Sequence record: KJ190158
Length of the DNA: 64,000 nucleotides
Direction: 5' to 3' (one strand)
Origin: Escherichia phage FFH2
Positions within the stretch are counted from its first letter, which is position 1; every line of letters begins with the position of its first letter. Shown in pieces: positions 2,619-64,000 of this stretch. The translations under genes and the position numbers were made by a program. The notes under the pieces are model-generated. The model did not search any database. It was given only the letters and a program-made list of their open reading frames with translations, and was not told where the DNA came from.

Positions 2619-2718
2619 AGCAATCCTCCGTTTTAATTTTAATGATAGTATACCTAACTGTTTTGTTAATTTCAAGTGTTGACACTAGGTTATTTGTGTG
2701 GCAGGATAGACTGACAAA

Positions 2719-3654
2719 ATGACAAATGAGGAACGTATGATGAAGTATTTTAATGCAGATGACCTAGTAGACAAAGGTCTTGTAACCAGTCGGTATTATC
2801 CAGATCTTGGATTAAAGATCTATAAATATGCCAGAAAAGTATTCTACAACAATCTGTGGCATTTGTCTCCGCGTTTACTGGAGTGCCGAGGTATTGTTGT
2901 TGGCAATGAGGGGAATGTTGTGGCATGGCCTTTCACAAAAGTATTCAACTTAGGAGAAAACTCCACCAATCTACCGGACAGTAAACTTGTTACTGCGGTA
3001 GAGAAAAAGAACGGATTCCTCGGTGTGGTATCATCTCATAAAGGTGAACTATTGTTCTCAACAACCGGGTCTCTTGATTCCCCATATTGTAACCTCGCAA
3101 AAGAAACCATCAGGGAGCAATGTGGTAATTTAGATCTTATCAAGAAGGTTATGGGCAATGAAAACATGACATTCATGTTTGAAATTTGCCACCCTTCAGA
3201 TCCGCATATTGTTCAGGAAGATCATGGCGCATATTTGATAGGTTGCAGATATAATGATTCTGGAATAATGCTACCAGAAGCAGCTTTAGATGGGATTGCC
3301 AAATACCTTGGTGCAAAACGTCCTCACACTGTGCGTGAAATTCCGTTCAGCTATGCAAAAGAATTAGCTGCAGAAACAAGAGGTGAAGGGTATATGATTC
3401 GTAAGCCTTACTACCCTTATGATCTGCAGCTGAAGATCAAGTCTCCATACTATCTGGCACGGAAGGCAGTAATGAGGGGTAAAGCTTGGAAGATTTGGGA
3501 TGATGATATCTTTAAACGTGTTGACGAAGAGTTTTACGGTATGGTAAAATTTATTCGTAGCAACTATACAGAAGATGTGTGGAATTGCTTATTAGAGCAG
3601 GAGCGTCGTGAGATACTGGACTACTATTTCCACAACGAGGACTATATGCAATGA
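2719..3654 (+). CDS. rnlA: RNA ligase, T4 Rnl1 (gene 63) family
   Basis: LLECRGIVV, KVFNLGENS and nucleotidyl-lysine motif VEKKNGFLGVVSS match T4 Rnl1 (ECRGIMF, KFFNLNENP, ILTKEDGSLVS) as recalled. Confidence 0.8.
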   Translation: MTNEERMMKYFNADDLVDKGLVTSRYYPDLGLKIYKYARKVFYNNLWHLSPRLLECRGIVVGNEGNVVAWPFTKVFNLGENSTNLPDSKLVTAVEKKNGFLGVVSSHKGELLFSTTGSLDSPYCNLAKETIREQCGNLDLIKKVMGNENMTFMFEICHPSDPHIVQEDHGAYLIGCRYNDSGIMLPEAALDGIAKYLGAKRPHTVREIPFSYAKELAAETRGEGYMIRKPYYPYDLQLKIKSPYYLARKAVMRGKAWKIWDDDIFKRVDEEFYGMVKFIRSNYTEDVWNCLLEQERREILDYYFHNEDYMQ

Positions 3655-4001
3655 AGAAGTGGATTGTGTGGCTTGATGATTTTAGAGATCCGTCAGATTA
3701 TGGACTCCCAGACGCTCTGTGGCTAAAGAATTCTTCTGAGTTTATGGATTTTCTTAATGATAAGAGAAAGCTCTACAGACGCGTATCTGAGTGGTATTTT
3801 GACAATGATCTAGGTGAAGTGCTTGAAGGGTACGACTGCTTCTCTGCGCTAGAGGAGAAACTTGTATTCGGAAAGCCACCACTTATTGACAACGTGATTA
3901 TTTTCGTGCATACTTCTAATCCATCGGCAGCTCGTAAATTTATGCTTGCTGCTGACTCATTCAAGAAGTTTGGAATAGAGATTAAACAAAACATCTACTG
4001 A
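3651..4001 (+). CDS. hypothetical protein (116 aa), translationally coupled between rnlA and the sirtuin
   Basis: ATGA overlap with rnlA stop; 8 nt before sirtuin start; no recognised motif. Confidence 0.45.
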   Translation: MKKWIVWLDDFRDPSDYGLPDALWLKNSSEFMDFLNDKRKLYRRVSEWYFDNDLGEVLEGYDCFSALEEKLVFGKPPLIDNVIIFVHTSNPSAARKFMLAADSFKKFGIEIKQNIY

Positions 4002-4009
4002 GGACACTT

Positions 4010-4771
4010 ATGCGACGACTGATTATTATCTCCGGTGCTGGTTTGAGCGCTGAATCTGGTATTCCCACTTTCCGATCTGGTAGCACTGCAATGTGGGAGA
4101 ATTTCAGCATCGATGAGGTGTGCAACATCCACACCTTTGCCAAGAACTACTATAAGGTGCATGACTTTTACAATGCACGTCGTGTAGCTCTGGGCAGTGT
4201 TGATCCTAACCTTGCACATCTTCGGATCGCTGAGTGGTATTCCCGCTGGTCTGGTCGTGTGATCAACCTTACCACCAATGTAGATGATTTGCTGGAGCGT
4301 GCTGGTGTAAAACATGAAGATATTTTACATGTCCACGGGTATTTGCCTGAAATCACCTACGAAGATGCTGAAGGTAATGATGTAATTAAAAATATCGGAT
4401 ACACGGAGGTAGATACAGGCAAGTATACCTGGGTTAAGCCCAATGTAGTGTTCTTCGGTGAGGTTGCTCCTAAGTATACAGACATGTATGACCTGTTGAC
4501 ATCTCTCACAAGCAATGATATGGTGATCCTAGTAGGTTGTTCTAACACAGTTATTAATTTTAACTGGGAATTGTTTCCTGCTACTTGTAAAGGCACAAAA
4601 CTGCTGATTGTAAACAAGTATGACTCGCAGAGTGCAGATGGAAGTGGCATTTCACGTAGCGACCTTTATCAATATGAGGATCGCGGGATCCCTGTATGGT
4701 TTAACGGTGCTGTTGACGCTTTCTCTGATAAAGCATTTATTGAAACTGTAGAAAACTTTATGGAACTTTAA
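4010..4771 (+). CDS. Sir2/CobB-family NAD-dependent deacylase (sirtuin)
   Basis: GAGLSAESGIPTFR, FYNARR, PNLAHL, TTNVDDLLERAG, catalytic HVHG, VVFFGE; near-collinear with E. coli CobB as recalled. Confidence 0.8.
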   Translation: MRRLIIISGAGLSAESGIPTFRSGSTAMWENFSIDEVCNIHTFAKNYYKVHDFYNARRVALGSVDPNLAHLRIAEWYSRWSGRVINLTTNVDDLLERAGVKHEDILHVHGYLPEITYEDAEGNDVIKNIGYTEVDTGKYTWVKPNVVFFGEVAPKYTDMYDLLTSLTSNDMVILVGCSNTVINFNWELFPATCKGTKLLIVNKYDSQSADGSGISRSDLYQYEDRGIPVWFNGAVDAFSDKAFIETVENFMEL

Positions 4772-4784
4772 AAGGAGACCTTTA

Positions 4785-5498
4785 ATGCTGAATACTAAAC
4801 TGATCGACAACCTGGAAAAACTGTCTCAGCCTGAAAACTACCTTTGGTCTGCCAACTGGGTGGAAAACTGGAACCGTGTGGCAGCTAAAGTGAAAAAATC
4901 ATACACACCATTCGAATTACAGCTTAGCTTCATTGAGGAAGAGTTCAATGAGGTTTTGGAAGAGCTGGAGAAAGGTGATGGTGGAGATCACCTGCTAAAA
5001 GAGGCCTGCGATCTTCACGTTGTCACAAGTTATGCCGCTTATCTTGTTAATGATAATCACGAAAAGTGGTCAAACCTGTTTGATAATCCACGAGGTCTTA
5101 AGTTCAAGATCGGTGAGTTCTATGATACACTGATCGCTGCGAAAAACACATCCAAGCAAAGAGCGTCAGCTTACCGCTTAGCGGAGTTGTCAACAGCTTT
5201 GCTGTTCCAGCTTCGCGGCGATGTGTGTGGGATGATGCGGAAGGTTCTCAAATCGAATGACAGCAAGTTTGCACGGGTCAACCATCTACGGTATTCACAC
5301 GGTGCCAGTGCAGATATGCCTGCTGAACAACTCATCGAGTTGGAGATTAAAGATCTTGAGCGACGCTTTGATGGTCGATATGAAGGTTTTGTTGCTAAGG
5401 AAGAATTCTACAACGGTAATAAAGTTATCATATTCCTTGACAGTAAAGGTAAGATCATGAAGCCTTCAAGCTTCAAGGATGTAACAGAGTATATTTAA
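4785..5498 (+). CDS. hypothetical protein, possible MazG-like all-alpha NTP pyrophosphohydrolase
   Basis: Acidic EEEFNEVLEELEKGDGGDHLLKEACDL segment resembles the MazG/HisE E-x-x-E ... D motif; weak. Confidence 0.3.
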   Translation: MLNTKLIDNLEKLSQPENYLWSANWVENWNRVAAKVKKSYTPFELQLSFIEEEFNEVLEELEKGDGGDHLLKEACDLHVVTSYAAYLVNDNHEKWSNLFDNPRGLKFKIGEFYDTLIAAKNTSKQRASAYRLAELSTALLFQLRGDVCGMMRKVLKSNDSKFARVNHLRYSHGASADMPAEQLIELEIKDLERRFDGRYEGFVAKEEFYNGNKVIIFLDSKGKIMKPSSFKDVTEYI

Positions 5499-21346: not shown

Positions 21347-21625
21347 ATGAGCTGTGAAAAATCTTTTTTCTTTATTATTTACGGTAAAGATAACTGCCCA
21401 CATTGTGTAAGAGCAAAAGAATTTGCAGTCAGTAAGGGTCTGCCTTTTGTATATAAGACACTTGGCGAGGGTTACACAAAAGAAGAGCTTATTGAGAAGT
21501 GCAGTCCAATCGTACCCAGAACGTTGCCGCAGATCTTCTTAGAAAGTAATCTTGAAAGTGTCCATATAGGCGGTGCCGACGATTTCATCTCTTTTGTTAA
21601 AAATGGTTTTGGAGAGAAAAAGTGA
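21347..21625 (+). CDS. glutaredoxin/NrdH-like redoxin
   Basis: CxxC motif (DNCPHCVRAKEF); between nrdB and nrdD. Confidence 0.6.
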   Translation: MSCEKSFFFIIYGKDNCPHCVRAKEFAVSKGLPFVYKTLGEGYTKEELIEKCSPIVPRTLPQIFLESNLESVHIGGADDFISFVKNGFGEKK

Positions 21626-22482
21626 AAGTTGTAAAACGGGACGGTAGAGAAGAGTTCTATAACGGAATTAAGGTGATCAAGGCGGCAGAGTCCGCCTTAC
21701 TTGAGTCTGGACATACTGAAGAAGAAGCTTACCGGATCGCCTGCGCGGTTAATGAAGTTGTTGCTAACAATCTACCAACCGACCAGTGCACGATCTCTGT
21801 AAAAAATATCCATATCCTTGTTGAAGACGCTCTTATGGATATGGGTTTAAAATGTGCAGCCAGAGAATACATCCAGTATAGGCAGACAAGAGATAATAAC
21901 AGAGAGGCAGGTGGAAAACTGCTTGCAGATATTAGTGGCTTCTTGGATCGCACTTGTGATGAATTTACAAAAGAAAACGCAAATAAGCCTACCAATCATG
22001 TACACACTCATCGTGACCTGCTTGCAGGCATCCTTAGCAAACACCTTGCATCAACACAGATCCTGACAGACCGTGTCTCAGAAGAGCACAATAAAGGCTT
22101 CATCCATGTGCATGATCTTGACTACTTGATCAGTCCGTTAACAAACTGTTGTTTGGTAAATTATCCAGATATGTTGGAAAACGGATTCAACATTGGTAAC
22201 GCCCATGTCAGTAAGCCGAAGTCAATAGGGGTTGCAACAACAATCCTTAGCCAAATCTCTAGTGCAGTAGCTAGTGCTCAATATGGAGGTCAGACTATGA
22301 GCCATATTGATCATTATCTGGCACAGTATGCTGAAGCGACCTATGAGAAGAACCTTAAATTTTGCCAGGAACATTGGTTGCCAGATGCTGAGACTGTTGC
22401 AATGCAAATGACAGATAAAGACGTATTTGACAGCATGCAGACTTTGCTCTATCAAATCAATACGTTAACCTCTGTCAACGGT
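21622..22482 (+). CDS. nrdD: anaerobic ribonucleotide reductase NrdD, exon 1
   Basis: ATP-cone N-terminus (VVKRDGREEFYNGIK); reading frame ends ...SVNG then stop at the proposed 5' splice site (exon ends in U). Confidence 0.75.
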
Positions 22483-23280
22483 TAACAAACTGGCCGTTGT
22501 AAAACTCTCCTAACCTCATAAGAGGGGTCGGTAAATCCGGCTAACGGGGAACGCTAAGGCGAAAGCTATGCCAATCCCGTGACTAGTTCTTACAGGAGTT
22601 GGAACGGTTGTAACGACTAACGAAAGGCAGAGATGCTTGACAAACATTTCTGAACCAAGTAGTGTAGAGGTTAGTTGAAATACTAACTTCGAAATGGAGA
22701 GGCTCTATGAAAAAGATCATTCTTAATGGTGAAGAATCAAACTATGTGATTGATGAGGTTGGAAACGTATACGGAAAACGTGGAATGCTACACCCAATAT
22801 TGTGGGGAGGTTATGGAAAAGGTAACAAGCATGTTAAACGCCGTTATATGTACTCTTTCAACCACAAAGGTAAAAAGATTCGAATCCAAACCTCAAGGAT
22901 TGTTGCCTTGTATTGTTTGCCAGATGTCCCAGAAGACCCTGAAAACTGGGAAGTGAATCATAAAGACGGCAATACATTGAATGATCATCCGTCTAACCTA
23001 GAGTGGGTTTTGCCGGAAGATAATAAGAGACATGCTTTCCGAACAGGGCTTTGCCCAGGCAAGTGCTATAGGAAAGTGCAGGCATACAAAGGGAAAACCT
23101 TGGTGGGTGAATATCCTTCACTCTATGCCTGTGCAAAAGCCTTAAATTTGAACGTAGGTAACGTTCATAGGGCTATCGAAGGAAATGCCGAAGGTAAGCA
23201 TCTCACAATAAAGGGTTATTATCTTATTGAAGTAGAGTAAGAGATAGTCTGGCCCTGTGGAAACACAGGGGAGGAGACAG
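22483..23280 (+). mobile_element. putative group I intron interrupting nrdD, with internal HNH endonuclease ORF
   Basis: 798-bp insertion; splicing after T22482 and G23280 joins ...SVNG to QTPFITLSLG in frame; structured GC-rich flanks. Confidence 0.6.
22707..23240 (+). CDS. HNH homing endonuclease (intron-encoded)
   Basis: EVNHKDGNTLNDHPSNLEWV HNH motif; sits in the nrdD gap. Confidence 0.7.
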   Translation: MKKIILNGEESNYVIDEVGNVYGKRGMLHPILWGGYGKGNKHVKRRYMYSFNHKGKKIRIQTSRIVALYCLPDVPEDPENWEVNHKDGNTLNDHPSNLEWVLPEDNKRHAFRTGLCPGKCYRKVQAYKGKTLVGEYPSLYACAKALNLNVGNVHRAIEGNAEGKHLTIKGYYLIEVE

Positions 23281-24543
23281 CAGACTCCATTCATCACATT
23301 AAGTTTAGGACTGGATACCTCGGTCTTTGGTAGAATGATTACCAAAAATTACTTGAAAGTCCACAAAATGGGTCTTGGTGAAGAACGTATCACACCTGTG
23401 TTCCCTAAAGTGCTGTTCTTCCTAGAAGAGGGTGTCAACATGAACCCTGGAGATCCTAACTATGATTTGAAAAGATTGGCTCTGGAATGCTCTGCAGAGC
23501 GGATTTATCCTGACTTTGTTTCTGTTCCACTAAATCGTAAAGTGACAGGCTCGACAGATGGTAAAGTAACGAGCATGGGTTGCCGGAGTTTTCTTAGCAA
23601 ATACAATGACTTGGAAACAGGCGAGGAGAAATACCTTGGCAGATTTAACTTAGGCGTTGTTAGCCTTAACCTGCCAATGATTGCGGCAAAAGCTAAAACG
23701 GAAGGTGTTGATTTCTTTGCAGTTCTTGACGAATACTTGGATCTTGCATACGAGGCTCACCTTGTAAGGGTTAACCGTCTAAAAGGAACAAAGGCAGGGC
23801 AGAACCCTATCATGTGGTGTGAAGGCGCTCTTGCTCGCCTGGATCCTGAAGAGAGTATTGATAAACTCTTCTATGACGGGTACGCTTCCATCAGTATTGG
23901 GTATATTGGTGTGTATGAAACCTGTCAGATTTTGGGCAGAGAGGGTGACAAGGCTTTAGCTCTTGGAATCCTTCAGCACATGAAAGATGCTTGTGAGCGA
24001 TATAAGAAGGAAAGTGGACTAGCATTTAGCTTGTACGGCACCCCTTCTGAGAGTTTATGCTATAAAGCTGCAACCTGTCTGGATCGTGAATATCCAGAAG
24101 TGTTGAAGCACGAGCATGAATACCTCACCAACAGTTTCCATCAGCCAGTATGGATCAATAGTTCACCTTTTGATAAGTGGAAGTATGAAGAAGGTTTTGC
24201 TATGATCTCTTCTGGTGGCAACATTGGATATATAGAGACACCTAACCTGAAAAACAACCTGGATGCTTTAGAGGCTCTTGTTGACTTCGGGTATAAACAC
24301 ATTATGTATTTTGGTATTAACCAACCTGTGGATAAATGTCTCAAGTGTGGTTTCTCTGGTGAGTTCAGTGCAACAGCTAAAGGCTTTGTATGCCCAGAGT
24401 GTGGAAACCATGAAGAGGGAACGATCAGTGTAATTCGACGTGTGTCCGGATACCTTTCCAGTCCTAACTCCCGTCCTTACAATAAAGGTAAGCAAGCGGA
24501 AGTTATCGAGCGAGTTAAGCACTATGGAAGTTGTAGTTGCTGA
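23281..24543 (+). CDS. nrdD: anaerobic ribonucleotide reductase NrdD, exon 2
   Basis: C-terminal glycyl-radical motif RVSGY and Zn ribbon CLKCG...CPECG. Confidence 0.78.
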   Translation, partial: QTPFITLSLGLDTSVFGRMITKNYLKVHKMGLGEERITPVFPKVLFFLEEGVNMNPGDPNYDLKRLALECSAERIYPDFVSVPLNRKVTGSTDGKVTSMGCRSFLSKYNDLETGEEKYLGRFNLGVVSLNLPMIAAKAKTEGVDFFAVLDEYLDLAYEAHLVRVNRLKGTKAGQNPIMWCEGALARLDPEESIDKLFYDGYASISIGYIGVYETCQILGREGDKALALGILQHMKDACERYKKESGLAFSLYGTPSESLCYKAATCLDREYPEVLKHEHEYLTNSFHQPVWINSSPFDKWKYEEGFAMISSGGNIGYIETPNLKNNLDALEALVDFGYKHIMYFGINQPVDKCLKCGFSGEFSATAKGFVCPECGNHEEGTISVIRRVSGYLSSPNSRPYNKGKQAEVIERVKHYGSCSC

Positions 24544-61652: not shown

Positions 61653-61876
61653 AGGTCCTCTTCTACAGCTACAAACTTGGCAAGCAGGGTGGTTCCGTAG
61701 ATATGATACTCACCGTTTGCCAGATGGGAGATAAACCAGGCAATCCCTTCCTCGTCTTTAATCATCTTGTTTGCACGATTTTTATCGTAATAAACCTCGT
61801 AGGTCTTTCCTTCTTTAAAGAATGACAGGTCTGTCATCTTTTCTTCTACAAAAGTAGCTTTAACCAAAGTTGTCAT
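61649..61876 (-). CDS. hypothetical protein, tandem paralogue with 61458..61652
   Basis: Shared motif. Confidence 0.4.
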   Translation of the reverse strand: MTTLVKATFVEEKMTDLSFFKEGKTYEVYYDKNRANKMIKDEEGIAWFISHLANGEYHIYGTTLLAKFVAVEEDL

Positions 61877-62190
61877 TGATCGGTCTCCTTCTTGTTAAGT
61901 CTGAATACTGCAATAATAACATTCCCAAGGTGCAGTGTCAAATCATTTCCAAGATACCACAACATTCCACGGTCATCTTTGATGAAAGGGTAACAATCTG
62001 GTGCCTTCCAGACATTGTACACTTTCCCAACCTGAAAGAAATCAGGCCCTGTTGGGATTTTGGTACCAGGCCACACTTGAGATACCTGAACACACTCCAC
62101 CTGCATAATAACAGGGATAGTCATAGATGTAAATGTTTTTGTTGGTTCTACTACCATAAAAGTCTCCTCTTTGCTCAACAACACTTCCAT
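61873..62190 (-). CDS. hypothetical protein (start probably internal ATG after polymerase stop)
   Basis: Annotated ORF overlaps the polymerase 3' exon by 40 nt; internal Met gives a non-overlapping start. Confidence 0.3.
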   Translation of the reverse strand: MEVLLSKEETFMVVEPTKTFTSMTIPVIMQVECVQVSQVWPGTKIPTGPDFFQVGKVYNVWKAPDCYPFIKDDRGMLWYLGNDLTLHLGNVIIAVFRLNKKETDQ

Positions 62191-62206
62191 GTGTTGATAG
62201 TTTACA

Positions 62207-62560
62207 TTAGTGACAATCACCCCAATTACGACCACACAAGTATTCACCTGTGATCTGGAACGGGACTCCCATCATTTTAGAAGCTTGCCAGAAGCAATGT
62301 ACCACCATTTCGCCCACAGGACTCCAGATAAGTTCAAGCTTTCCGTCATCGTTCAAGATAGGATCGTACACCGTGTTTCCGTCTCTGTCAACCACTTCGT
62401 TTCCGTCCTCATCCTTGCGTGCCTTTTTGTACTTATGACCGTCGAACACATGAAGTTTGGCCTCCTGCTCTGCCTTAAATGCTTCCAGTTCTTCGATTGT
62501 GTCGAAGGTGTACACAGTCTTATACTTCGGTGTGTCAGGGACTTGAAGCTGATATTCATC
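62207..62560 (-). CDS. family A (T7-like) DNA polymerase, 3' exon (motif C to C-terminus)
   Basis: Spliced junction reads YYH/DEYQLQV (motif C HDE); C-terminus ...GRNWGDCH parallels T7 gp5 ...GPNWAICH as recalled. Confidence 0.7.
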   Translation of the reverse strand, partial: DEYQLQVPDTPKYKTVYTFDTIEELEAFKAEQEAKLHVFDGHKYKKARKDEDGNEVVDRDGNTVYDPILNDDGKLELIWSPVGEMVVHCFWQASKMMGVPFQITGEYLCGRNWGDCH

Positions 62561-63403
62561 CATCTGTTCAGGTAGGTCGTTAAGCTACCCCGCACCATTA
62601 CGTGCATAGCCATACAGTTTCCTGTATGGATCGGACTACCTCACTGCCTTGGTAACAAGGCACCTCCCATTTCGACCGCACTTGCTGGCCTACTCTACTC
62701 GCTTCTTCACACCAACCTATGTTGGAGCTATGCTTTCGATAGTCTCTGAACGTTACTACCAGGTGTAGTTTTTAGAGATATGTTTCCACTGTCTTCTTTG
62801 CTTTATAGCCCTGACGGTCTCATAAGGATATCCAAGATCCCTAATCTCGCATTGTCGTAGACCACTCTGCAACAGTTCGCAAATCTCTATTACCTCATCT
62901 TCTGTCAGCACAGCGTTAGCATTATACTCACCAACTGGCCTTACTCTGAGGTCATTATCATAGGCGTGCTTGATATTTCCACCAGGGGTGGTCCATTCTA
63001 GGTTCCAGTATGCATTGTTGTACTTATTCCCATCCTTATGGTTCACCCATGTGAGTCTTTCAGGATCTGGGTTTGATACAAAGCATTCAGCAACCAGGTG
63101 GTGGACACCTTTTGTGCACTGCTTCCCCTCGATTAGCATGGTTACGCAAAGGTAACCTCTACCATTATCAAAACAAAACATTGTTGTATGATCACGTTTC
63201 GATAAAGGTATTGTTCCATCATCAAACACGGTATACCCGTGATAATCAGCTGTTCTAGCCATTTTAACTACACCCCTTTAGTCTTCGCTGCGGATTAGCA
63301 TATTGAGCTTTTACCATACTCAGGTGTAAAAGTCAACTTAGCTTCCCCGTCAATTAAAGAGGTTATTCGACATAGATTACTCTATGAAGCCACAATGTTA
63401 TTT
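62561..63403 (-). mobile_element. putative group I intron in the DNA polymerase gene, carrying an HNH homing endonuclease
   Basis: 843-bp insertion exactly before motif C; upstream exon ends in U (CAT), intron ends in G; the upstream frame stops immediately after the junction. Confidence 0.6.
62756..63262 (-). CDS. HNH homing endonuclease (intron-encoded)
   Basis: VNHKDGNKYNNAYWNLEWT HNH motif, similar to the nrdD-intron endonuclease. Confidence 0.7.
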   Translation of the reverse strand: MARTADYHGYTVFDDGTIPLSKRDHTTMFCFDNGRGYLCVTMLIEGKQCTKGVHHLVAECFVSNPDPERLTWVNHKDGNKYNNAYWNLEWTTPGGNIKHAYDNDLRVRPVGEYNANAVLTEDEVIEICELLQSGLRQCEIRDLGYPYETVRAIKQRRQWKHISKNYTW

Positions 63404-63997
63404 ATGGTAATAAATAATACGACGAACACCTTCATCGTACCACCCACGCTTCACCATTTGGTGGTGCATGAGTATCCCAACTAAGTCACACAACGATGCA
63501 CCACCATTTTGTTGGTATGCATTAAGTAAAGAGTGTTTAGATCGGGTCCAGATGGCATGACCATCAAAAGAGTAGATAAACTTCTTACCCGTTGCTTCCC
63601 AGAATTTCTCCAGATCCTCTTTACGGCCCTTAAGACCAGGGTTGGCATCCCAAAGCGCATCGATTACCCTTTGTCCCAACTCTGGAGAGATGTCCAGCAT
63701 ATCTGCAACTTTATCTTTTTGTGCCCCGTACATAACCCCATACGTGATAGGTTTACCGTCGTTACGGGACACCTCTCTGCCTGCTACTTTTGTATATGCC
63801 TCAGCATTGTTTTGGTGTGCGTCTCCGTTACTTACAACATCATAATACAAGCCGTTGTCGAACTCAAAGGCACCCCAAGCCCCGATAAGCTGCTCTAAGT
63901 TGGACCCGTCAATACCGATCTCAAAGTATCCAGGAGGAACACCCCACAGACTACGCATCTCTTTACCCATAACCACTTTAGGAGATGGTTTAGGCAT
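63404..63997 (-). CDS. family A (T7-like) DNA polymerase, 5' exon fragment (motifs A and B); N-terminus lies beyond window end
   Basis: GIDGSNLEQLIGAWG...FDNGLYYDVVSNGDAH (motif A region) and RNDGKPITYGVMYGA (motif B) parallel T7 gp5 GLDASGLELRCLAHF...RDNAKTFIYGFLYGA as recalled. Confidence 0.75.
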
Positions 63998-64000
63998 GTT

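Follow-up and report, generated by a model that had tools for sequence, protein, structure and literature searches.

Positions 62561 to 63403 of the window are very probably a mobile group I intron of subgroup IA2, which interrupts the family A, T7-like DNA polymerase gene of a Vequintavirus (an rV5-like coliphage). The window is the whole stretch of DNA that was analysed, 64,000 nucleotides from Escherichia phage FFH2 (KJ190158). Within motif C (HDE), the insertion separates the His codon from the Asp codon. The element is already known: it has been annotated, and splicing of a homologue has been shown by experiment.

Polymerase exons and insertion boundaries

The polymerase gene, its interruption and the gene inside it are arranged as follows.

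63404..64000, minus strand: DNA polymerase exon 1, the 3' part that lies in the window (matches to T7 DNA polymerase, DNA_pol_A and slur16)
62561..63403, minus strand: group I intron, 843 nt, IA2-like (absent in slur16; RF00028; covariation)
63398..63400, minus strand: in-frame UAA stop, one codon inside the intron (ORF end ...YYHK and stop)
62756..63262, minus strand: HNH homing-endonuclease gene, 168 aa, I-HmuI-like (phrog_59 and I-HmuI matches)
62561..62561, minus strand: omega-G, the intron's terminal base at the 3' splice site (slur16 boundary)
62207..62560, minus strand: DNA polymerase exon 2, DEYQLQV...GRNWGDCH plus stop codon (ORF reading, slur16 collinearity)

The 5' portion of the polymerase gene runs past 64000 and is outside the window. 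The minus-strand ORF at 63398..63997 ends with ...RRIIYYHK and a stop, AAA TAA standing right after the CAT at 63406-63404. Exon 1 itself ends with ...RRIIYYH, the last codon being CAU and the final base U63404. A second minus-strand ORF (62207..62563) reads M-DEYQLQV...GRNWGDCH and a stop, and the AUG that gene callers assign to it (62563-62561) is the last three bases of the intron. These ORFs bear out the preliminary description, which had one polymerase frame stopping a codon after ...RIIYYH and another beginning 843 nt downstream.

The splice junction had been placed behind U63404 and G62561, and the allele of phage slur16, which lacks the intron, agrees with this to the base. It aligns to window positions 63600-63404 and then, without a gap, to 62560-62150; it is without exactly the 843 nt that separate U63404 from G62560. 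Since the bases flanking the junction differ (U/G upstream, A/G downstream), the junction cannot be shifted. The insertion starts with AAAUAACAUUGUGG and ends with ...GAACAGAUG. Its ends match the group I rule of an exon-terminal U and an intron-terminal G, and the terminal G is found in all ten homologous introns. An intein was also considered and is ruled out by the in-frame stop one codon into the insertion.

Joining the exons gives ...IYYH/DEYQ..., which aligns to motif C of T7 DNA polymerase, ...WVH/DEIQ..., and motif C is restored as had been claimed. Against T7 DNA polymerase, the joined protein gives E = 1.4e-13 in an alignment that crosses the junction (query iyyHDEyql, T7 awvHDEiqv), spans T7 gp5 residues 469-658 and covers DxSxLE, YG..YGA and HDE. 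After joining, motifs A, B and C, including the catalytic Asp-Glu, stand in one continuous chain, and the intron-less slur16 polymerase protein gives the same T7 alignment. At the level of sequence the match at the junction is far beyond chance. The partial exon 1 matches Pfam DNA_pol_A with E = 2.4e-7 (30.5 bits; cut-off 34.3). The C-terminus of exon 2 is T7-like, as the first reading of the sequence had it: ...GRNWGDCH aligns with ...GPNWAICH of T7 (GxNWxxCH, followed by the stop in both) in a direct pairwise comparison, with E = 0.026 for that single comparison. The exon-2 protein by itself gave no polymerase match in PDB, because it has about 65 extra residues after motif C. As read from the sequence, the spliced junction would be ...UACCAU/GAUGAAUAU..., within the predicted spliced sequence ...UAUUACCAU/GAUGAAUAUCAG..., and the predicted junction-spanning peptide of the joined polymerase is ...IIYYHDEYQLQVPDTPK. 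Unspliced RNA would give a polymerase that breaks off immediately ahead of the catalytic Asp-Glu in motif C.

Structure of the ribozyme

Ten homologous introns, all at the same YH/DE site, were aligned. They represent five groups, namely four genera of Vequintavirinae and a Vibrio phage. The structure was modelled from P1 to P9.2 with 88 pairs, and shifted partners and 500 shuffles were used as controls. The predicted helices of the window intron are as follows.

63390..63407, minus strand: P1, exon CCAU plus intron AA (63407-63402) with guide UUGUGG (63395-63390) (also in the Rfam alignment)
63371..63386, minus strand: P2 hairpin CAUAGA-GUAA-UCUAUG, GNRA loop (covariation)
63357..63363, minus strand: P3 5' strand ACCUCUU, partner 62668-62662 (covariation)
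63289..63352, minus strand: P4-P5-P5a-P5b domain (covariation and fold)
63352-63346 / 63294-63289, minus strand: P4
63342-63341 / 63299-63298, minus strand: P5
63336-63333 / 63306-63303, minus strand: P5a
63332-63326 / 63314-63308, minus strand: P5b
62750..63288, minus strand: P6, GCG 63288-63286 / CGU 62752-62750, which closes a 533-nt loop with the endonuclease gene (covariation)
62740..62744, minus strand: P7 5' strand GACUA, partner UAGUC 62638-62634 (covariation)
62674..62739, minus strand: P7.1 (62739-62699, tip hairpin 62725-62712) and P7.2 (62690-62674) (covariation)
62662..62668, minus strand: P3 3' strand GGGAGGU (covariation)
62646..62661, minus strand: P8 hairpin GCCUUG-UUAC-CAAGGC (covariation)
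62634..62638, minus strand: P7 3' strand UAGUC (covariation)
62571..62628, minus strand: P9 (62628-62611, GAAA loop), P9.1 (62606-62591) and P9.2 (62589-62571) (covariation)

The full P1-P9 structure, for which folding of the insertion had been suggested, was found. Standard pairs fill 94.0% of cells in the ten introns (36-40% with partners shifted), and compensatory changes occur at 41 of the 88 pairs. None of the 500 shuffles reached the observed value on four of the five measures; on the remaining one, further pair types, 9 of 500 did. Every helix but the invariant P1 covaries. P3, P4, P6, P7 and P8 of the core all have compensatory pairs, and P3 and P7 form a pseudoknot. The helices of the window copy contain no non-canonical pairs.

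In P1, the wobble U63404-G63393 marks the 5' splice site. All six pairs of this helix are invariant in the ten homologues, and hence P1 is uninformative for covariation. A P10 candidate, read from the sequence, pairs CAUU (63397-63394) with the first exon-2 bases GAUG (62560-62557). P2 has compensatory changes at all six pairs and 100% of its cells paired, and P3 has two such pairs and 90% of cells paired. The helices from P4 to P5b were recovered by the unconstrained minimum-energy fold of an ORF-less allele. Compensatory changes are also seen in the P6 region (alignment helices 8-10), where the ORF-less alleles have a 14-nt P6a hairpin, CAUCCGAGAGGAUG, in place of 528 nt of the P6 loop (window 63282-62755). 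P7 is paired in 100% of cells; at one of its pairs, rV5 and K54_rec2 show a compensatory change from U-A to C-G. P7.1 and P7.2 are joined by the linker GUAGAGUAG; helices 12-14 of this region show compensatory changes, and P7.2 is 100% paired with two compensatory pairs. Four of the six P8 pairs have compensatory changes. P9, P9.1 and P9.2 are all 100% paired and have 4, 1 and 3 compensatory pairs, respectively.

Extra helices P7.1 and P7.2 between P7 and the P3 3' strand are a mark of subgroup IA, and a GUA-containing linker between them is the criterion given for IA2 in PMC3428280. By its P7.1/P7.2 the present intron is probably IA2, or IA2-like.

RF00028, the Rfam model of group I introns, has a curated gathering score of 50 bits. 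A search of the whole window against Rfam at gathering thresholds gave no matches, and in a permissive search the window intron scored 26.8 bits (E = 1.8e-4), below the cut-off. The score is low because a 528-nt insertion, which includes the 507-nt HNH ORF, interrupts P6; even so, the window copy does not pass the direct search. ORF-less alleles score above the threshold (JLBYU08, 72.5 bits; JEP1, 73.7; rV5, 64.7), as do the homologues 24-2-1 and Vibrio phage K470 (91.2 and 77.3 bits). Leaving the ORF aside, the window intron and that of JLBYU08 share 98-99% identity. Together with the covariation from P2 to P9.2, these scores uphold the group I identity proposed in the preliminary description.

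The score below the Rfam cut-off is what might be expected if the window ribozyme were a defective copy, or if the interruption were an assembly artefact, leaving no working polymerase gene. This is extremely improbable: the 2-kb arrangement recurs, at 94-98.5% identity, in 28 independent phage genome records, the helices predicted for the window copy consist entirely of canonical pairs, and the core is nearly identical to that of an allele scoring 72.5 bits.

A different reading of the same gene is that no splicing takes place, and that the polymerase consists of two polypeptides, the N-terminal one ending ...YYHK and the C-terminal one 118 aa long, which assemble after translation. Such split polypeptides have a precedent in Aeromonas phage Aeh1, whose NrdA is interrupted by the mobE endonuclease gene. 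The AUG at 62563-62561 directly opens the exon-2 frame, an AUG, UUG or GUG is at this position in 10 of 10 homologues, many GenBank records have two separate 'DNA polymerase' CDSs, and split genes that do not splice exist in phages (PMC7344957). However, no Shine-Dalgarno-like run is present in the 15 nt that precede this AUG (CGACCUACCUGAACAG), and the break would part His from Asp-Glu within the catalytic motif. The complete group I core is under selection, as its compensatory changes indicate, and is kept in ORF-less alleles; a non-splicing spacer, which would have no need of the core, is therefore disfavoured. The homologous CB7 intron, moreover, does splice. Two separately made polypeptides are thus very unlikely, and a spliced group I intron is the preferred reading. 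Splicing in the window phage would be expected by analogy with CB7, where it is backed by RT-PCR.

Endonuclease gene and intron mobility

The HNH ORF announced at 62756..63262 was recovered by matches to phrog_59 and I-HmuI. It has a Shine-Dalgarno-like GGGGUG 8 nt upstream of its AUG. It matches phrog_59 over full length (residues 6-165, E = 1.5e-36) and the I-HmuI structure 1U3E over residues 34-100 (E = 3e-5; vHhLVA...vNHKDGNkyNN...NLeW). Its match to Pfam HNH_3 (E = 0.0028, 17.7 bits) is below the curated cut-off of 24.8, and an NCBIfam search with both HNH proteins, from the polymerase and nrdD introns, gave no matches. Sequence membership, which includes the beta-beta-alpha-metal motif and its conserved His and Asn residues, supports its assignment as an HNH (His-Me finger) endonuclease of the I-HmuI type. 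The product would probably act as an endonuclease. Note that it has Asn (vNHKDGN) where I-HmuI has the metal-binding Asp that precedes the catalytic His, and its activity is therefore not assured.

Among 119 records of related phages surveyed for presence and absence, 28 have the intron with the HNH gene. The rest have either an ORF-less intron (276-329 nt) or an empty site. In genomes more than 95% identical to each other the site occurs in all three states. As judged from these genomes, this three-state polymorphism is typical of a mobile intron.

It could be argued that the intron splices while the HNH gene is a decaying passenger, which persists by vertical descent and ordinary recombination only. 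The species group has many ORF-less derivatives, which fit the gain-decay-loss cycle of homing endonuclease genes. The Asn at the metal-binding position and the Pfam score under the cut-off point the same way. The ORF, however, is intact at 168 aa and its protein is 96-100% conserved among intron-plus phages; Av-05 has an intact ORF of matching length at 72% nucleotide identity, the phrog_59 match is full-length, and the three site states among such similar genomes fit ongoing mobility. A passenger gene is unlikely, though it deserves some weight, and a mobile intron with its own endonuclease is preferred.

The insertion point in P6 is occupied in two genera either by a short P6a hairpin (JLBYU08; 24-2-1) or by an HNH cassette of roughly 528 nt that is homologous between the genera (the window phage; Av-05), and the intron cores surrounding it differ by about 30% between the two genera. 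This raises the possibility, a rather unlikely one, that the endonuclease cassette has a mobility of its own, separate from that of the ribozyme. If the pattern is not due to repeated exact deletion, the HNH gene or its enzyme would spread between resident ORF-less introns. I-HmuI acts on intron-containing alleles. If the cassette does move alone, the site is a natural system for the invasion of an intron by an endonuclease gene.

The preliminary description had also likened the HNH ORF to that of the nrdD intron and suggested two related invasions. The two proteins do belong to the same family, phrog_59, but this family is very large and their likeness is distant (35% identity over 91 aa, E = 6e-6). 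In a nucleotide comparison the two intron RNAs showed no similarity. The ORF is in the P6 loop in the polymerase intron and near the 3' end in the nrdD intron, and in related phages each element is distributed independently of the other. Both are mobile introns of one general type, but they do not stem from a recent duplication.

Proposed pathway and significance

The proposed splicing steps follow the standard group I pathway. Transcription of the polymerase gene would run through the intron, and the intron RNA would fold into P1-P9.2. An external guanosine would attack after U63404, held as a U-G wobble in P1. The freed 3'-OH of exon 1 would then attack after the terminal G62561, with P10 aligning exon 2. 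Ligation of the exons would give ...IYYH-DEYQ... and one full-length polymerase. In mixed infection, the HNH product may act on polymerase alleles by nicking or cutting them close to where the intron inserts, and recombinational repair would copy the intron into the cut alleles (homing).

The main value of these results is in correct annotation: the real polymerase would be one protein, made only after RNA splicing. In most GenBank records sampled it is listed as two unrelated CDSs, named 'DNA polymerase' or 'hypothetical protein'. Phages of this kind include some with food-safety uses and some that have been put forward for therapy. The site also offers a natural series in an essential gene, from empty site through ORF-less intron and mosaic intron to intron with endonuclease. 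The covariation-backed pair map could serve studies of homing and of splicing control of polymerase expression. The current understanding of group I introns is unchanged by these results.

Relation to known introns

The closest described case is Escherichia phage HeinrichReichert/Bas58 (MZ501073), which has the same element at the identical insertion site with 96% nucleotide identity; in its record the polymerase CDS is a join of two pieces on either side of the endonuclease gene. The genome paper of LL12 mentions a predicted intron in the polymerase (PMC6658697). In Pectobacterium phage CB7, splicing of the CB7_50 intron in infected cells was demonstrated by RT-PCR and Sanger sequencing (PMC7344957). 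The introns of CB7 and phiTE are at the same YYH/DE codon boundary and have a homologous ribozyme core. They differ from the window intron in their P5 extension and in their HNH ORF, which is a different, shorter one (384 nt) starting upstream of P4'. No secondary-structure or covariation analysis of the Vequintavirinae polymerase intron was found in searchable papers.

The T7-like phages PhiI and W31 are reported to have an intron at E. coli Pol I position 881, which also carries an HNH endonuclease (PMC3428280). Position 881 is the His of the HDE motif C, the same site as that of the window intron. The likeness is one of reported insertion site; PhiI and W31 are T7-group podoviruses, and the window phage is a 137-kb myovirus. 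IA2-type introns with HNH genes are likewise found in the family A polymerase genes of SPO1, SP82, Bastille and Pf-WMP3, and their nicking enzymes (I-HmuI, I-HmuII, I-BasI and I-PfoP3I) are of the same family as the window ORF. phrog_59 also occurs in polymerase introns of Bastillevirinae (PMC11878797). Those four introns, however, are inserted at position 674 in the fingers subdomain and not in motif C (PMC3428280), and the ORF of the SPO1 intron is in P8 (PMC3073962), not in the P6 loop.

One further polymerase intron, examined in looking for a T7-group phage with the window's intron, was rejected as a homologue at this site. Salmonella phage S.Kent 1-2-1 (43 kb) has a group I intron scoring 51 bits at a different site, TGRLSASNP/NMQQLP, and it resembles the window intron only around P9.

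The T4 introns in td, nrdB and nrdD (sunY) are of subgroup IA2 with P7.1/P7.2, like the window intron. They too interrupt essential genes for DNA metabolism in a myovirus of E. coli, can be missing from close relatives and have a homing endonuclease within a peripheral loop. Their endonucleases differ, being GIY-YIG enzymes (I-TevI, I-TevII) or a defective HNH-type one (I-TevIII), and so do their host genes.

The split polymerase gene

The T7-like DNA polymerase gene is encoded on the minus strand and extends past the window edge at 64000. Its split is defined by the following features:

ends 63398, minus strand: polymerase exon-1 frame, reading ...GVRRIIYYHK*
62207-62563, minus strand: polymerase exon-2 frame, reading M-DEYQLQV...GRNWGDCH*
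62756-63262: HNH ORF of 168 aa, within the polymerase insertion

As the preliminary description stated, the first frame stops one codon past RIIYYH and the second (DEYQLQV...GRNWGDCH) lies 843 nt downstream (U63404 to G62560). Its observation and main interpretation, a polymerase split at motif C by a group I intron with an HNH endonuclease, are correct. The intron is already annotated, and in a homologue splicing has been shown experimentally. GenBank record MZ501073 (HeinrichReichert/Bas58; 96% identical at this region) gives the polymerase CDS as two joined pieces with a 'putative homing endonuclease' between them, and treats nrdD likewise. For LL12, the genome announcement says of the polymerase gene that it is 'disrupted by predicted intron sequences' (PMC6658697). 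In the rV5 genome paper the only introns covered are those of the terminase, and the polymerase is given as gp228 of 775 aa (PMC3606486), a product that corresponds to exon 1 only. In the T7-like phages PhiI and W31, introns of the family A polymerase are reported to fall at position 881 in E. coli Pol I numbering (PMC3428280), which is the His of HDE and the same site as in the window. Those of SPO1, SP82, Bastille, and Pf-WMP3 are at position 674 and that of phiL7 at 676 (PMC3428280). New here are a covariation-supported base-pair map, the finding that the ORF sits in P6, and a catalogue of allelic states.

The 2 kb around the insertion match 28 Vequintavirus (rV5-like coliphage) genome records at 94-98.5% identity, ECML-10 being the closest. 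Comparison with intron-less alleles, proposed in the preliminary description, gives the exact boundaries: slur16 aligns to window 63600-63404 and its next base continues at 62560-62150. Because the bases flanking each boundary differ, the insertion is exactly 62561-63403. It is preceded by an exon U and its last base is G. The exon join translates to ...IYYHDEYQLQV... and can be aligned with residues 469-658 of the T7 DNA polymerase (E = 1.4e-13), as can the uninterrupted slur16 polymerase. Joining thus restores motif C, with HDE opposite the HDE of T7, and the T7-like C-terminus is also confirmed (...GRNWGDCH* lines up with T7 ...GPNWAICH*). Exon 2 alone has no match among solved polymerase structures because about 65 extra residues follow motif C.

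Group I identity and allelic states

At curated thresholds no Rfam family matches the window. A permissive search with RF00028, the Rfam group I intron model (cut-off 50 bits), gives 26.8 bits on the intron, with only the 5' half covered correctly. Related phages explain this low score, as the ORF is inserted in the P6 loop. The polymerase site exists in several states: empty (slur16, Murica, V18, and others), with an ORF-less intron of 329 or 328 nt (JLBYU08, JEP1), with a 276-nt variant (rV5 itself), and with the 843-nt form. On either side of the ORF, JLBYU08 and the window share 98-99% identity, the sole difference being that JLBYU08 has a 14-nt hairpin in place of window 63282-62755 (528 nt). 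RF00028 scores 72.5, 73.7, and 64.7 bits on the ORF-less alleles of JLBYU08, JEP1, and rV5, and 91.2 and 77.3 bits on the more distant copies of Avunavirus 24-2-1 and Vibrio phage K470. In the Rfam alignment the splice-site U is in the U-G pair of P1 and the ORF insertion is in the P6 loop. These matches, together with covariation, support the group I assignment; the insertion is a textbook mobile group I intron. Empty, ORF-less, and ORF-containing alleles among genomes more than 95% identical are the footprint expected if homing occurs and the endonuclease gene is later lost.

Structure and covariation

Ten homologous introns, all at the codon boundary between YH and DE, were aligned by their cores with the ORFs removed. 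They are from Vequintavirus (this window, JLBYU08, rV5, JEP1), Avunavirus (Av-05, 24-2-1), Certrevirus (CR9, phiTE), Klebsiella phage K54_rec2, and Vibrio phage K470. A model of P1, P2, P3, P4, P5/5a/5b, P6/6a, P7, P7.1, P7.2, P8, P9, P9.1, and P9.2, drawn from the window sequence, has only canonical pairs in the window copy. Standard pairs occupy 94.0% of the alignment cells, versus 36-40% in controls with the 3' partners displaced by 1-3 columns, and 41 of the 88 pairs show changes on both sides. None of 500 shuffles reaches the observed values on four of the five measures; for further pair types, nine did. Compensatory changes are found in every helix except P1, which is invariant; they affect, for example, each of the six pairs of P2, four of the six of P8, and three of the five of P9.2. 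There is also support for the P3/P7 pseudoknot and for P7.1 and P7.2, joined by a linker that contains GUA; P7.1 and P7.2 with such a linker are the mark of subgroup IA2 in the usage of PMC3428280. An unconstrained fold of an ORF-less allele recovers the local helices. A possible P10 of 4 bp can be read between intron CAUU and exon-2 GAUG.

Probable splicing of the polymerase pre-mRNA

Splicing is needed because translation of unspliced RNA stops after one intron codon, short of the catalytic Asp-Glu. The pre-mRNA would follow the usual two-step group I pathway started by guanosine, and splicing is most likely in the phage of the window. The ribozyme is under purifying selection in distant relatives and is kept even in alleles without the ORF, both of which support splicing. 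The homologous intron of Pectobacterium phage CB7 is removed from mRNA, as shown by RT-PCR and Sanger sequencing (PMC7344957). It contains the HNH gene CB7_50 (between CB7_51 and CB7_49) and has the same boundary, RRIIYYH/DEYQ, and a homologous core, which by analogy supports splicing in the window. Alternatively, the polymerase might be made as two polypeptides, and most records do have a separate exon-2 'DNA polymerase' CDS. The last three intron bases (window 62561-62563) are AUG, UUG, or GUG in all ten aligned homologues, so gene callers start a CDS there. No Shine-Dalgarno sequence or other ribosome-binding site is found before the exon-2 AUG of the window, which argues against two polypeptides.

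HNH endonuclease and possible movement of intron modules

The presence of an HNH ORF in the insertion is borne out by a nearly whole-length match of its product to phrog_59 'HNH endonuclease' (E = 1.5e-36) and a match to the nicking homing endonuclease I-HmuI (structure 1U3E; E = 3e-5) across the catalytic motif. The Pfam HNH_3 match falls below the cut-off and an NCBIfam search with the protein gives nothing. Where I-HmuI has the Asp preceding the catalytic His, the protein has Asn, so endonuclease activity is plausible but not assured. A tblastn search gives relatives of it in 1,451 phage records; intron or homing endonuclease is a frequent annotation among them.

At the same point in P6 (window 63285-62753; JLBYU08 locus L001 3219-3232; the equivalents in L006, Av-05, and L007, 24-2-1), introns have either a short hairpin (CAUCCGAGAGGAUG in JLBYU08, CAUCCCUACGGGAUG in 24-2-1) or, in this window and Av-05, a homologous HNH cassette of ~528 nt. 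Each state is present in two genera, between which the cores diverge by about 30%, a hint of a possible spread of the endonuclease gene between resident introns. The 276-nt rV5 intron (L004 3098-3373) is mosaic in make-up: its P1-P3 and P9-P9.2 are almost the same as those of the window, and P4-P8 is a divergent version (short P5; different P6a, P7.1, and P8; P7 in a G-U/C-G variant). This pattern points to recombination, at this one site, between different introns.

A polymerase group I intron with an HNH ORF (RF00028, 51 bits) is also found in the 43-kb Salmonella phage S.Kent 1-2-1 (L015 1841-2527), at a different site (TGRLSASNP/NMQQLP). It is about 79% identical to the window intron in the P9-P9.2 region only, which suggests exchange of intron modules.

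Comparison with the nrdD intron

The nrdD gene is also split, by a 798-nt insertion relative to intron-less rV5:

21622-24543, plus strand: nrdD
22707-23240: HNH ORF of the nrdD intron

Placed at 22483-23280, the insertion has canonical group I ends (exon 1 ends ...GGU, intron ends ...CAG), with junctions ...AACGGU/UAACAAAC...GAGACAG/CAGACUCC. The RF00028 score is 27.7 bits for the window copy and 29.8 bits for the ORF-less HeinrichReichert allele, both below the cut-off of 50; the full-length match in the latter has the 5' splice site after GGU. The suggestion that two related elements invaded two essential genes holds in part. They are of the same kind, both HNH proteins falling in phrog_59, but not close relatives: the proteins are 35% identical across 91 aa (E = 6e-6), the intron RNAs have no detectable nucleotide similarity, and the nrdD insertion, polymorphic among relatives, assorts independently of the polymerase intron (for example, of the two, nomine has only the nrdD intron and APECc02 only the polymerase intron).

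Other insertions around the polymerase gene

Mangalyan (L002 2687-3658), JEP1 (L005 2687-3658), and VB-EcoM-WM have 972 nt inserted in frame in exon 1, between ...NGDAH and NNA...; the window (equivalent ~63812-63815) lacks this insertion. It is probably an intein, since the annotated CDS is a single long protein. A second interruption of the polymerase gene besides the intron, in the motif B region between ...ITYG and (I/V)MYGAQ, mostly holds another HNH ORF; the window equivalent (63737/63736) is empty. In Av-05, K54_rec2, and CB7 a free-standing HNH endonuclease gene is immediately downstream of the last polymerase exon, overlapping the exon end in the first two. In the window this position (61873-62247) has a 124-aa ORF, where tblastn with the intron HNH gave no match.

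L006 (Av-05) 2084-2814: motif B-region interruption
L007 (24-2-1) 448-1181: motif B-region interruption
L009 (phiTE) 1973-2685: motif B-region interruption
L010 (K54_rec2) 466-1179: motif B-region interruption
L013 (CB7) ~1497-2209: motif B-region interruption
L006 (Av-05) 4262-4900: free-standing HNH gene
L010 (K54_rec2) 2622-3284: free-standing HNH gene
L013 (CB7) 3528-4013: free-standing HNH gene

There are also 16-20 GenBank 'Campylobacter phage' records (MG065635, MG065644, MG065690, and others) with Campylobacter jejuni as the stated host. Over the polymerase region they share 94-98% identity with E. coli Vequintavirus genomes, and their host labels look doubtful.
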